The notes beneath the pieces were generated by a model. It saw only the letters and a program-made list of their open reading frames with translations, was not told the origin of the DNA and did no database searches. A DNA stretch of 5,392 nt from a virus (taxonomy: Duplodnaviria > Heunggongvirae > Uroviricota > Caudoviricetes). The position numbers and the translations under genes were made by a program. Position 1 is the stretch's first letter. The number at the start of each line of letters is the position of its first letter. Shown here one piece after another: positions 1-5,392 of the stretch. The DNA lies in IMG/VR virus record IMGVR_UViG_2724679140_000006; one strand, written 5' to 3'.

Positions 1-70
1 TTATCAGTTACAGGAAAACATGACCAGAGTATTCCGAAAAAGAGAATAATCAATAAAATATTGAAAATAC

Positions 71-193
71 ATGGTGCCGGGTGCCTCCCGGTGAATTCTG
101 CAATGACCAGACAGAATCCGCAACTTGCCTATACGATAACGCGACCAAACATCTGTCATTATGCCCCTCCGCTCATGAGGATTCACCATGCAG
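71..193. repeat. Copy A of a structured direct repeat: 25-nt 5' box, divergent hairpin-containing core, 15-nt 3' box
   Basis: The 5' box ATGGTGCCGGGTGCCTCCCGGTGAA (71-95) is identical to 985-1009, and the 3' box GGATTCACCATGCAG (179-193) is identical to 1073-1087. The 5' box contains a GGTGCC direct repeat and a CCGGG/CCCGG hairpin, and the CATGGTG/CACCATG ends are inverted complements. The core is different in sequence from copy B but forms its own hairpin (ATTCTG 95-100 with CAGAAT 112-117). Weaker shared boxes continue to about 257. Strand of any RNA product is unknown. Confidence 0.8.
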
Positions 194-389
194 TACTCTT
201 TTAACAAACTCCCTGCAAGCAGGACAACATTCTGCGTTCTGAGTTGTGTGGAATTTAACACTTCACACCTGTGTGCATTTTCTGCAGGCTGATACCAGCT
301 CCACAATACATCGCAGGCAACAGAAGCCAAATACCCCACCACAGAAAAAACATGCAATTATGATTATTGTTTACTGCAAAGATGTAGAA

Positions 390-877: not shown

Positions 878-935
878 ACAGCGAATCAGATCAAATAAAA
901 CGCACATTTGTTAACATTTACACAAAGTCTGCGTG

Positions 936-956
936 GGATATTCTGAAAGAATATCC
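936..956. promoter_or_regulatory. Perfect 8-bp inverted repeat GGATATTC-TGAAA-GAATATCC, possible operator
   Basis: Exact dyad symmetry seen directly, about 60 bp upstream of the -35 of the lipoprotein promoter. No U-run on either strand, so it is not an intrinsic terminator. Confidence 0.3.
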
Positions 957-984
957 ATAATGTGGAGAGAATCTATTGAAGTGC

Positions 985-1087
985 ATGGTGCCGGGTGCCT
1001 CCCGGTGAACAAAACGTTCGTGATACCTGTCGGCGACAGAAAAGGTTAATGGTATCACCCCACCGCACAGGGGGATTCACCATGCAG
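985..1087. repeat. Copy B of the structured direct repeat (same 5' and 3' boxes as copy A, different core)
   Basis: 5' box at 985-1009 and 3' box at 1073-1087 are identical to copy A. The core forms an 8-bp stem (GTGATACC 1020-1027 with GGTATCAC 1051-1058) enclosing a small hairpin around 1027-1039. Upstream ATTGAA and downstream boxes CAAACTCaCTGC (1100-1111) and GAGTTTGTGGcATTTA (1144-1159) are also shared with copy A. Confidence 0.8.
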
Positions 1088-1406
1088 GAGTTTTCTTAGC
1101 AAACTCACTGCGCGCCCGGCAACTCCCAACCACATAAAATGCGGAGTTTGTGGCATTTATGCATATAACTCGCAGGAATTATCTTAAAAAACTGATGTCG
1201 ATCCGGATTAAAAAGAAGCAGGTCATCATCAGATGACTGGAAAAAAGGAAAACAAAAAATACTCATCATACAGTTTTGATTGCAGGGATGAGCCTGCTAT
1301 GCACAATATGCAGAATATAAGCAAGATAAAAATATGCAGGCATATTATTTCGGATTTTGTTATTAACACAACCTTTTTAATAATCATTTGGCATACAATA
1401 AACCAG

Positions 1407-1786: not shown

Positions 1787-1861
<75 letters not shown>

Positions 1862-1864
1862 ATA

Positions 1865-1940
<76 letters not shown>

Positions 1941-1942
1941 AC

Positions 1943-2019
1943 TGGACCGCCACCGAGGACTCGAACCTCGTACGCTCAACTTAGAAGGTTGATGCTCTTT
2001 CCAGGTGAGCTAGTGACGA
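1943..2019 (-). tRNA. tRNA-Arg (anticodon UCU)
   Basis: Reverse complement is TCGTCACTAGCTCACCTGGAAAGAGCATCAACCTTCTAAGTTGAGCGTACGAGGTTCGAGTCCTCGGTGGCGGTCCA. Anticodon loop CTTCTAA as in argU-type tRNAs, T-loop TTCGAGT, encoded CCA. Acceptor stem has two G-U wobbles including U1-G72. Confidence 0.75.
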
Positions 2020-2020
2020 C

Positions 2021-2096
2021 AGGTGGCCCTTGCTGGATTTGAACCAGCGACCTGGCGATTATGAGTCGCTCGCTCTCACCACTGAGCTAAAGGGCC
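2021..2096 (-). tRNA. tRNA with CAU anticodon, ileX/ileZ-like (probably tRNA-Ile2; tRNA-Met not excluded)
   Basis: Reverse complement is GGCCCTTTAGCTCAGTGGTGAGAGCGAGCGACTCATAATCGCCAGGTCGCTGGTTCAAATCCAGCAAGGGCCACC. Strong resemblance to E. coli ileX as recalled. Anticodon loop CTCATAA. Only CC of the 3' CCA is encoded; the next base is T. Confidence 0.75.
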
Positions 2097-2893: not shown

Positions 2894-3057
2894 AACGATA
2901 ACTCCGTACATTTGGACATTATCGCCACCGTCAGGTGCTAATCATCGTGGTGGCGAACTGTGCGGGGTTAGCACTACCGAGTACGGAAACCGGCGAGCCT
3001 TTCGGCTCCCCCACACAGCCCGCCATAAATCGCGAATGTGACTGTGCAAACGATATG

Positions 3058-3079
3058 AAAAAAAGACGCGGGCGCGTCT
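3058..3079 (-). terminator. Intrinsic terminator about 60 nt downstream of the pR'-like promoter (tR'-like)
   Basis: Minus-strand hairpin AGACGC-GCCC-GCGTCT followed by seven T residues. Confidence 0.6.
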
Positions 3080-3141
3080 CATATCGCTCCGTAAACATCC
3101 GGGGTGCTAATCCCGACGCCAGATTTTGCTGGCGCGTGAGG

Positions 3142-3171
3142 AATATAGCCCCGGATAACAGATTGAGTCAA
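3142..3171 (-). promoter_or_regulatory. pR'-like late promoter overlapping the Q stop codon (TTGACT, 18-nt spacer, TATATT)
   Basis: Minus-strand -35 TTGACT (plus 3166-3171, overlapping the TGA stop of the upstream ORF) and -10 TATATT (plus 3142-3147). Promoter immediately 3' of Q followed by a terminator is the classic lambdoid pR'/tR' layout. Confidence 0.5.
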
Positions 3172-4009: not shown

Positions 4010-4608
4010 TACGCAAACTCCAGTAGTTGTGCGGCCACATTTTCAACTTCCTCCTGAGAGGAGAATTTACGGAACAGAATCCAGTTCCACAGCACATTCA
4101 GTACAGATTTATAAACCTGCTGAAACTCGACTTCGTCCATATTCGCAAAAGCGATGGATTTTGCCCGACGCCCACGGCTACCGTCCGGATAAATATGCTC
4201 GGTGTAAAATCCGGCCTGAATGGTTACCCACTCGCGGAAAGCCTCAAACGACTTTAGCAACGCCGTATCCCGGGTTCTACGAGTCGCAACGGTGTTAAGG
4301 TATTGCTCTGCGGCATCACTCAGGGCTGGCGTGTGTTCCCGACCAACTGATTCGCACAGGTAATCAACGAAACCGGACACCAGTTTTCGTTCGCGAGGCG
4401 TGATAGCCCCACCGACCGGAGTCCAGTAATCGAATCCCAGTTGCAGGAGTTTGAAAAAACGCTTGTGGAATGCGTAGTTACGCACACGCTTAAAGTCTGC
4501 GTGTATCCACTCGCCTATTTTTATTTGATGCAAAAAATCGCAACTCTCCGGCGTCGCCGGGAGAAGTAATCCGGAAGAGGTTTGTTTGACCAGTTGTATA
4601 TGCGCCAT
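4009..4608 (-). CDS. Phage nin-region protein, DUF1367-like, 199 aa
   Basis: The ORF track starts at a TTG at 4620. The first ATG (MAHIQLVKQ, 4608) has GGAG 6 nt upstream and is the more likely start. Stop overlaps the ybcO-like start. DUF1367 assignment is from recalled prophage synteny, not a computed match. Confidence 0.65.
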   Translation of the reverse strand: MAHIQLVKQTSSGLLLPATPESCDFLHQIKIGEWIHADFKRVRNYAFHKRFFKLLQLGFDYWTPVGGAITPRERKLVSGFVDYLCESVGREHTPALSDAAEQYLNTVATRRTRDTALLKSFEAFREWVTIQAGFYTEHIYPDGSRGRRAKSIAFANMDEVEFQQVYKSVLNVLWNWILFRKFSSQEEVENVAAQLLEFA

Positions 4609-4667: not shown

Positions 4668-4844
4668 TCATTCGCGAACCACCTTGAAACCGAGCCTTTC
4701 AAGGTATTCAATGAATGCCTCGATAGATAAAATTACATGATCATCAGGGATTAACGTTGTGTAGACAACTTTCCCATTCTCAACGCGCACAGCATAGAGG
4801 CCATTTTCACTAAAAATTTTACGCAGTTCTTCGATGTTCATCAT
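4668..4844 (-). CDS. Small hypothetical protein, 58 aa
   Basis: ATGATG start at 4844/4841 with GGAAGGA 5 nt upstream; TGA stop at 4668. Below the 60-aa cutoff of the ORF track. Product MMNIEELRKIFSENGLYAVRVENGKVVYTTLIPDDHVILSIEAFIEYLERLGFKVVRE is acidic and soluble-looking, with no family recognised. A possible TTGAAG-18-TAGAAT promoter lies at 4923-4952. Confidence 0.5.
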   Translation of the reverse strand: MMNIEELRKIFSENGLYAVRVENGKVVYTTLIPDDHVILSIEAFIEYLERLGFKVVRE

Positions 4845-4960
4845 CAGAGTCCTTCCGGATAATTCGCACTCCCCTTCAGGGGACCATCCCTCTTATCCCT
4901 GCGCGCTACTTAAGTATTTTTGATTCTATTCCGGCACCGTCCAAAACTTCAAATGCGTTG

Positions 4961-4992
4961 AAAATAAAAACAAAAACCCGCCGAAGCGGGTT
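4961..4992 (-). terminator. Intrinsic terminator of the hok transcript
   Basis: Minus-strand hairpin AACCCGC-TTCG-GCGGGTT followed by TTTTTGTTTTTATTTT. A second hairpin (GGCGAGGG-ATTAC-CCCTCGCC, 5032-5052) in the 3' UTR is consistent with the fold-back element of hok mRNAs. Confidence 0.6.
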
Positions 4993-5059
4993 AAGTGCGG
5001 GTGCGTTGAGGATGCCTGACACATCAGAGGTGGCGAGGGATTACCCCTCGCCTGGTCTC

Positions 5060-5215
5060 TTACTCCTCAGGTTCGTAAACTGTGAAGACAGCGACCTCCG
5101 TCTGGCCGGTTCGGATTCGTACCTCGCAGAGGTCTTTCCTCGTTACCAGTGCCGTCACTATGACGGTTAAACAGATGACGATCAGGGCGATTAACATCGC
5201 CTTTTGCTGCTTCAT
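5060..5215 (-). CDS. hok: Hok/Gef family type I toxin, 51 aa, HokD/RelF-like
   Basis: MKQQKAMLIALIVICLTVIVTALVTRKDLCEVRIRTGQTEVAVFTVYEPEE is near-identical to HokD/RelF as recalled. ATG at 5215 with AGGAG about 9 nt upstream; TAA stop at 5060. The ORF track shows an in-frame 19-codon upstream extension from an ATG at 5272, which may be a mok-like frame. Confidence 0.85.
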   Translation of the reverse strand: MKQQKAMLIALIVICLTVIVTALVTRKDLCEVRIRTGQTEVAVFTVYEPEE

Positions 5216-5280
5216 AGCCTGCTTCTCCTTGCCTTTCGGCACGTAAGAGGCTAACCTACATTTGTGAGACATAGATTGGG

Positions 5281-5338
5281 CCTCAGATTAATGTTAAGCG
5301 TCTTGCAGGACGCGTAATGTTAACTGGGGCTTTTCTCT
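5281..5338 (+). ncRNA. Possible Sok-like antisense RNA 3' end, or a leader structure of hok mRNA
   Basis: Plus-strand compound hairpin: outer CCTCAG/CTGGGG, imperfect arms containing TAATGTTAA twice (5288-5296 and 5315-5323), inner GCGTC-TTGCAG-GACGC (5298-5313), followed by CTTTTCTCT. It is antisense to the region upstream of hok. No convincing promoter found; boundaries and strand are uncertain. Confidence 0.25.
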
Positions 5339-5392
5339 ATCTGCCTTTTGGTGATCATGCCTGAGGCAGATAGCCTCAAGCACCCATTATGA

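Follow-up and report, generated by a model that had tools for sequence, protein, structure and literature searches.

A lambdoid prophage very probably carries a complete hok/mok/sok type I toxin–antitoxin cassette of the hokD/hokW subfamily

The hokW–sokW locus of phage Sp5 is an experimentally shown type I toxin–antitoxin system (PMC8621323, Takada et al.). Its toxin, HokW, is found at the inner membrane and is neutralized by sokW in a manner that depends partly on RNase III and Hfq; mutation of the sokW −10 element unleashed toxicity (PMC8621323). Helping lysis and phage release after induction is the sole experimental role of hokW (PMC8621323), the closest relative of the locus described here. 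The mRNAs of hok loci have four hallmarks: closure of the molecule by pairing of tac with fbi, masking of the mok Shine–Dalgarno (SD) sequence by ucb, tac/ucb and SD/dcb pairing after 3′ processing, and a metastable 5′ hairpin in the nascent transcript (PMC9841398). HokD is toxic when overexpressed, and the chromosomal hokA, hokB and hokC loci have been reported to be without post-segregational killing or a response to rifampicin (bioRxiv 10.1101/2025.08.07.668861).

Here we analysed a stretch of viral DNA of 5,392 nucleotides (the window) and conclude that positions 4961–5392 very probably hold a complete and self-contained hok/mok/sok cassette of the hokD/hokW subfamily, situated in the nin-like region of a lambdoid prophage. 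A sequence-only reading had already recognized a hok type I toxin locus in this region, and Pfam and Rfam matches, the RNA architecture and existing hokD and mokW/hokW/sokW annotations all support that identification. Features are on the minus strand, and coordinates refer to the window, unless stated otherwise.

The toxin gene hok (hokD type; 5060–5215, with the ATG at 5215 and the stop codon at 5062–5060) encodes 51 amino acids. Its product matches the whole of the Pfam HOK_GEF profile (PF01848, positions 1–42 of 42; 2.6e-22, 78.6 bits against a cut-off of 22), is identical to K-12 HokD at 50 of 51 residues (98%) and corresponds to the RefSeq protein WP_000813256.1, ‘toxin HokD’. An SD sequence, AGGAG (5225–5229), lies 9 nt before the ATG and is the point at which homology to K-12 hokD begins. 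The HokD/RelF-like toxin and ribosome-binding site that had been proposed are thus borne out. A PADLOC search with Hok returned no match; the library offers no Hok match, hence this is no argument against the identification. Two plus-strand open reading frames that overlap hok (4958–5170 and 5082–5246) were rejected as genes: both run antisense to a stretch of conserved coding sequence and structured RNA, and neither is annotated in any of the matched records.

Near the C terminus of Hok, a UACG surrounds a tyrosine codon (5074–5077) and has the sequence of a motif for A-to-I editing by TadA. In K-12, editing of UACG in the hokC, hokD and hokE mRNAs recodes tyrosine to cysteine, at a level of 6% for hokD (PMC12214031). 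Editing at 5077–5074 is a possible extra layer of control of the window locus.

The module is already known, widespread and annotated. The locus is 100% identical in Escherichia coli IGC_EcoliInv_1.1 (NZ_CP054665.1), in which RefSeq annotates the hokD coding sequence alone and leaves out mok and Sok. This full-length prophage hokD (WP_000813256.1; thousands of genomes) recurs with 97–98% DNA identity in many other genomes and in the same context as in the window, with hok followed by rem-like, DUF1367, DUF1364 and DUF1133 genes; nothing substantive differs. The hok leader is present at ≥80% coverage in 4,267 of 5,426 complete E. coli genomes, at a median of two places per genome. The region is also carried by 102 phage records, among them the Stx2 phages 933W and Sp5 (VT2-Sakai), in which it is annotated mokW/hokW/sokW and shows 93.5% nucleotide identity to the window over the leader, the open reading frame and fbi.

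Between the window and the 933W/Sp5 locus, the Sok promoter, tac, ucb, dcb and fbi are identical and MokW is 90% identical. By contrast, the Sok 5′ tail and mok codons 2–4 differ in 933W, and cross-neutralization between the window locus and hokW is therefore uncertain. The C terminus of Hok differs as well (TVYEPEE against VDYESEK). In 933W, the cassette occupies another place in the phage genome, has a different promoter sequence and is without the terminator hairpin of the window.

A further relative is hokD (relF) in the cryptic prophage Qin of K-12. The toxin, 3′ untranslated region (UTR), fbi, terminator and rem-type downstream neighbour are conserved in Qin, but homology does not extend upstream of the hok SD; K-12 has no leader, mok start, Sok or promoter, the first three of which are present in the window, and relE stands in their place. 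This replacement of the leader by relE is the reason that K-12 hokD is considered to have been inactivated by rearrangement (PMC12214031, PMC7232551). No relBE adjoins the window locus, either among the open reading frames of the window or in the annotated source genome, as the sequence-only reading had observed in setting the locus apart from the Qin arrangement. That reading had also named disruption by an insertion sequence as a sign of a relic; we found no insertion sequence from position 5998 of the extended source sequence (L003) to the terminator, and the locus is colinear with the 933W, mEp460 and O157 copies. Both insertion-sequence disruption and a relBE-type truncation are rejected by these alignments. 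Judged by its sequence, the locus is the intact form and not the truncated relF relic of K-12.

The 5′ leader had been thought to run off the edge of the window. Instead, it is complete: the Rfam family RF01794 (‘sok’) matches 5385–5210 untruncated over model positions 1–157 of 157 (121.2 bits against a gathering score of 59; E = 3.7e-28). In the alignment, the model runs from GGGUGCUUGA to the hok AUG; it describes the hok-mRNA strand, and the name of the family is therefore misleading with regard to strand. Homology to other E. coli and phage copies begins precisely at 5385, where model position 1 also falls, and an R1-like hok locus starts with GGCGCUUGAGG at the equivalent position. Together with the fold, the Rfam start and homology place a predicted full-length hok mRNA of about 410 nt at 4972–5385, running from GGGUGCUUGAGG to the terminator; its minimum free energy (MFE) is −167.7 kcal/mol (z = −7.1). 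As the leader lies whole within the window, most of the question of intactness can be answered, and the answer is that the locus is intact.

Upstream of hok, the sequence-only reading had pointed to an unnamed in-frame extension of 19 codons from an ATG at 5272. This extension is present as a 70-codon frame (19 codons plus hok; 5060–5272) that starts 57 nt upstream of the hok ATG, and it is mok, the frame through which Sok acts. We make this assignment because the homologous 70-codon frame in 933W, 90% identical at the protein level, is annotated mokW and because K-12 mokC and hokC have the same geometry, with a common stop codon and starts 57 nt apart. The mok SD, GAGG (5281–5284), lies 8 nt before the mok ATG; GAGG is likewise the mok SD of R1 (PMC9841398).

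On the plus strand, a long interrupted hairpin at 5278–5332 is followed by CUUUUCUCU up to 5338, in agreement with the compound hairpin and U-rich tract that had been noted at 5281–5338. It folds with −30.7 kcal/mol (z = −5.35), and none of 200 shuffled sequences was equally stable; it appears compound because this subfamily has a 16-nt loop insertion relative to the Rfam consensus. Alignment with the sokW misc_RNA of 933W places a predicted Sok RNA of about 71 nt at 5264–5334 (plus strand), comprising a single-stranded 5′ tail, GUGAGACAUAGAUU, the long hairpin and a U-rich end. Its predicted start lies 8 nt inside mok, as does that of K-12 sokC in mokC. Upstream, identity to sokW marks a promoter at 5229–5257 (plus strand), with TTGCCT as the −35 element (5229–5234), a 17-nt spacer and TAACCT as the −10 element (5252–5257); hexamers and spacer are identical in the window, 933W and mEp460. 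The −10 element is the very sokW hexamer that was mutated experimentally, with primer YO-421 replacing TAGGTTAG on the hok strand (PMC8621323). A simple terminator scan of the window did not flag the Sok 3′ end, which was called from the fold and the sokW annotation. The promoter, the 933W annotation and the fold thus favour the reading of this strand as a putative Sok antisense RNA.

Plain MFE folding of the window sequence reproduced all four hallmarks of hok mRNA. The translational activator element tac (GGGUGCUUGAGG, 5374–5385) forms the 5′ end of the mRNA and changes partner in the predicted folds, from nucleotides 19–29 in the nascent RNA to fbi in the complete molecule and to ucb after truncation. 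In the nascent transcript, tac is sequestered in a metastable hairpin formed by mRNA nucleotides 3–29 (5357–5383); the fold of nucleotides 1–30 has an energy of −19.6 kcal/mol, and the hairpin also forms in the R1 control and in hokB. The anti-SD box ucb (AAGCCCCAG, 5324–5332), which is defined by the folds and the Rfam consensus structure, is paired to the mok SD region as long as the RNA is complete and to tac once the 3′ end is truncated. In the full-length fold, the mok GAGG pairs with a GCCCCAG box, and in the Rfam consensus structure model positions 1–7 pair with ucb.

The fold-back inhibitory element fbi (CCUCAACGCACCC, 4999–5011) was placed by the folds and by duplex energy. Pairing of mRNA nucleotides 1–12 with 5011–4999 is present in both the MFE and the centroid structure, with a duplex energy of −21.5 kcal/mol; this energy is only modestly unusual, being reached by 29 of 2,000 dinucleotide shuffles of the 3′ UTR (p about 0.015), and we therefore examined covariation. 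Relative to K-12 hokB, two pairs are altered on both sides with the duplex retained (U–A to C–G and G–C to A–U), and R1 retains the tac/fbi pairing with yet another sequence. We discarded K-12 hokC as an additional test of fbi, as its duplex was unconvincing and IS186 adjoins the locus.

When the RNA is cut just before fbi (nucleotides 1–372 or 1–374), the predicted fold switches to tac/ucb pairing, to pairing of the mok SD region GAGGC with the dcb element GCCUC (5247–5251; the concept follows PMC9841398) and to a hairpin with the mok AUG in its stem. A cut at nucleotide 368 (nucleotides 1–368) retains the metastable hairpin and not tac/ucb, so the predicted outcome depends on where the RNA ends. 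The hairpin with the mok AUG (5253–5277) is the predicted Sok target of the truncated mRNA, and its loop, CUCACAA (5268–5262), can base-pair with the predicted 5′ end of Sok. The loop includes a YUNR-type CUCA, a putative U-turn as in R1. An R1-like hok locus that was folded by the identical method gave the same three states (nascent, full-length and truncated).

The fold-back hairpin that had been described in the 3′ UTR merges two elements. A local hairpin does exist (GGCGAGGG-GUAAU-CCCUCGCC, 5032–5052, from the folds), and 933W carries GCGGGGGA/UCUCCCGC at this site, with both sides changed; by comparison with R1, it would be the 3′-terminal protective stem-loop of the processed mRNA (PMC9841398). 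The true fbi (5011–4999), however, forms no hairpin and instead pairs with the 5′ end of the mRNA. The strong terminator that had been noted downstream of hok stands. A terminator scan located it at 4961–4992 (AACCCGC-UUCG-GCGGGUU with a T-rich tail), with a stem-loop at 4992–4975 of 7 bp (5 GC) and a UUCG loop, followed by the T-rich tail to 4961. In the alignment, it is kept in K-12 Qin and mEp460 and absent from 933W.

Two further described loci share several of these features. The K-12 hokC/mokC/sokC locus (gef) resembles the window in its 19-codon mok in frame with hok, in a Sok that begins 8 nt inside mok and in a near-identical leader start, GGGTGCTTGAGGCT, but lies at a different chromosomal site, and IS186 adjoins the K-12 copy. 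The hok/sok locus of R1 (parB) has the same elements as the window, the same three predicted conformers and the same −10-N6-G register, and matches the same family models. It is carried by a plasmid rather than a prophage, and its Sok hairpin is without the 16-nt insertion of the window. In the sequence of the R1-like locus, the ATG equivalent to the mok start and the hok ATG lie in different frames, whereas mok of the window is in frame. The identity between the Hok proteins is about 44% (the figure stated for HokW in PMC8621323).

From the R1 and hokW paradigms and the structures predicted from the window, we infer transcription starts, RNA half-lives, toxicity and a biological trigger along the following lines. 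The hok mRNA, roughly 410 nt in length, would start at G5385, and during synthesis its 5′ end would be held in the metastable hairpin. In the finished mRNA, tac would pair with fbi and ucb would mask the mok ribosome-binding site, so that the full-length RNA should persist while escaping both translation and binding by Sok. Slow 3′ trimming would strip fbi, upon which tac would move to ucb and the mok start region would refold as the target hairpin. The short-lived Sok (plus strand, 5264–5334), expressed from a promoter inside mok, would pair across the mok start, and RNase III would cut the duplex. Once the supply of Sok ends, mok would be translated and, with it, hok, the translation of which would be coupled to that of mok; the resulting 51-amino-acid membrane peptide would depolarize the inner membrane and lead to cell death or lysis. 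Possible triggers are loss of the prophage, an infecting phage that blocks host transcription, and prophage induction.

Which of these triggers matters bears on the role of the cassette. It may aid lysis and phage release on prophage induction rather than serve maintenance or abortive infection, and we regard this as a plausible, if tentative, reading that falls somewhat short of an even chance. In Sp5, mitomycin C made sokW RNA vanish in a RecA-dependent manner, HokW was seen about 1 h before endolysin, and deletion of hokW–sokW halved phage release (PMC8621323); the window locus is likewise prophage-borne and has the 93.5% identity to hokW–sokW given above. However, the effect in Sp5 was two-fold, the source prophage contains several pseudogenes and may not be inducible, and its cassette does not occupy the same phage-genome site as that of 933W. 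Moreover, the same switch would respond equally to loss of the prophage or to a shut-off of transcription by a superinfecting phage.

The sequence-only reading had proposed a role in prophage maintenance or abortive infection; by post-segregational killing or abortive infection, the cassette would stabilize the prophage or exclude other phages. We consider this rather doubtful, and less probable than an aid to lysis. In R1, hok/sok serves to maintain the plasmid and has also been linked to phage defence (PMC8621323), prophages show a roughly four-fold enrichment of hok genes (bioRxiv 10.1101/2025.08.07.668861) and, in this prophage, a RosmerTA defence pair lies immediately next to the cassette. 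Yet the survey that reported the enrichment in prophages saw none in the vicinity of defence systems, and the chromosomal hok loci tested were without post-segregational killing (bioRxiv 10.1101/2025.08.07.668861).

The abutting pair also determines what lies upstream of the hok transcription start. A promoter scan inside the window found none for hok, and the promoter does lie beyond the edge, as had been expected, save for the last T (base 5392) of a −10-like TAAAAT. This T and a 6-nt spacer, CATAAT, occupy 5386–5392, and the rest of the putative hok promoter is off the window (L003 5973–6001). In the source genome, the sequence upstream of hok +1 reads TTTATA-17-TAAAAT-N6-G, a 9-of-12 match to the consensus; the scan of the extended locus found 1 such site, at just the anticipated position, against 1.1 expected from shuffled sequence, which by count is no better than chance, and the hok promoter is therefore assigned by position only. 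Most hok loci have GTTTGC...TAGAAT-tgctgc-GGG in common upstream, and the source sequence is unrelated there: it is the 3′ end of a gene for a 373-amino-acid HTH/Peptidase_M78 protein (RmrA). In PADLOC, this protein and its 216-amino-acid upstream neighbour score as RmrA and RmrT, a RosmerTA pair (5.7e-107 and 1.4e-18).

It could be argued from this junction that the canonical hok promoter was lost when RosmerTA joined at hok +1, leaving a hitch-hiking, silent relic with no correctly initiated mRNA; upstream homology to other loci ends exactly at +1, the replacement promoter is the 9-of-12 match just described, and the K-12 chromosomal hok loci are widely held to be inactive (PMC12214031, PMC7232551, bioRxiv 10.1101/2025.08.07.668861). 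We consider such decay improbable, as every downstream element is intact (hok, mok, both SD sequences, tac, ucb, dcb, fbi, the Sok promoter and the terminator), TAAAAT is in the same N6-G register as the −10 elements of five other hok loci (among them 933W, TAGAAT; R1, TATGAT; hokC, TATAAT; and hokB, TAGGAT), the rmrA–hok junction with both hexamers is conserved in 30 of 5,426 complete E. coli genomes, including O157:H7, and rmrA transcripts must enter hok anyway. On balance, we judge the cassette to be intact in its sequence, with a hok promoter that is putatively functional.

A terminator scan of the extended source sequence found none between rmrA and hok, and a read-through RNA into hok is therefore also expected. 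In a model of this 5′-extended RNA, the mok SD stays masked and tac/fbi is absent from the MFE fold. With rmrT–rmrA fused at the start of hok, hok mRNA could be supplied in part or even entirely by read-through from the defence operon, although we give this little credence. If it were true, 5′-extended transcripts without the predicted tac/fbi closure would be made, and a type I toxin would be coupled to the expression of a defence system.

Directly before the hok transcription start lies a mosaic junction, a slot for different accessory cassettes that here contains the RosmerTA pair, and it could be used to ask whether replacement of the promoter changes the control of hok. The value of the finding lies mainly in correct annotation: judged from its sequence, the prophage carries the complete mok/hok/sok form and not the truncated relF relic known from K-12.

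The homology shared by hok cassettes ends exactly at the mRNA +1 (window 5385/5386), as seen when the window copy is compared with the other hok loci (L001, L002 and L006–L009). What lies upstream of the cassette varies by genome: the source genome has a RosmerTA pair there, AREA_497 a Ser/Thr kinase and PP2C, RM11911 DUF551, and E24377A hypothetical genes. The slot upstream of the hok +1 appears to be a mosaic junction that receives accessory cargo. In the source-genome locus extended beyond the window (L003, from NZ_CP054665.1), the gene pair that scores against RosmerTA defence models occupies positions 4240–5998, ending 3 nt past window base 5392, and adjoins the hok leader on its upstream side. 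Its RmrT-scoring member was recovered at 1.4e-18 and its RmrA-scoring member, which carries HTH_3 and Peptidase_M78 domains, at 5.7e-107; the stop codon of rmrA falls within the −10-like TAAAAT of the putative hok promoter, supplying its first three bases.

Downstream of hok lies a rem-like open reading frame of 58 amino acids (window 4668–4844, minus strand), accompanied by a promoter-like TTGAAG-18-TAGAAT (window 4952–4923, minus strand). Its first 27 residues share 81% identity with K-12 Rem and the sequence diverges afterwards; RefSeq labels it a partial pseudogene. This reading frame is another mosaic junction.

Within the cassette, Rfam RF01794 matches window 5210–5385 on the minus strand, with a model that runs from tac, the element at the mRNA 5′ end, to the hok AUG. 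The family is named ‘sok antitoxin’ and is modelled on the hok-mRNA strand, so the strand of the match gives the orientation of hok, not that of Sok. Relative to the Rfam consensus, the Sok/target hairpin contains, within window 5290–5315 (minus strand), a 16-nt insertion, cgcguccugcaagacg, that forms an extra GC-rich stem and accounts for the length of sokW of phage 933W (71 nt) compared with K-12 sokC (59 nt). In window 5074–5080 (minus strand), the hok Tyr codon TAC lies within UACG, the TadA editing motif (PMC12214031). The window Hok differs from K-12 HokD at one residue only, where the GCT codon for Ala is replaced by GTT for Val; this codon lies directly 5′ of the TAC, and the change might affect TadA editing of hok. 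The E. coli cassette is also present, at 98.3% identity, in PP818812.1, labelled ‘Actinobacillus phage vB_Apl-pPE4’, an odd host label for such a sequence.

Elsewhere on the minus strand, the sRNA family STnc100 occurs twice (window 21–220, 105 bits; window 929–1115, 86 bits), with a small gene annotated TolA-like between the two copies, and four tRNA genes are clustered at window 1787–2096: Gly-TCC, Thr-TGT, Arg-TCT and, last, one with a CAT anticodon, assigned to Met by ARAGORN and to Ile by RefSeq. Matches to C4 antisense RNA (74.8 bits), isrK (74.4 bits) and the c4 a1/b1 target (49.8 bits) occur together at window 2946–3148, also on the minus strand, with an ORF6N-domain gene just downstream on the same strand. 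This arrangement resembles the P1-type c4/ant immunity module, here within a lambdoid prophage.
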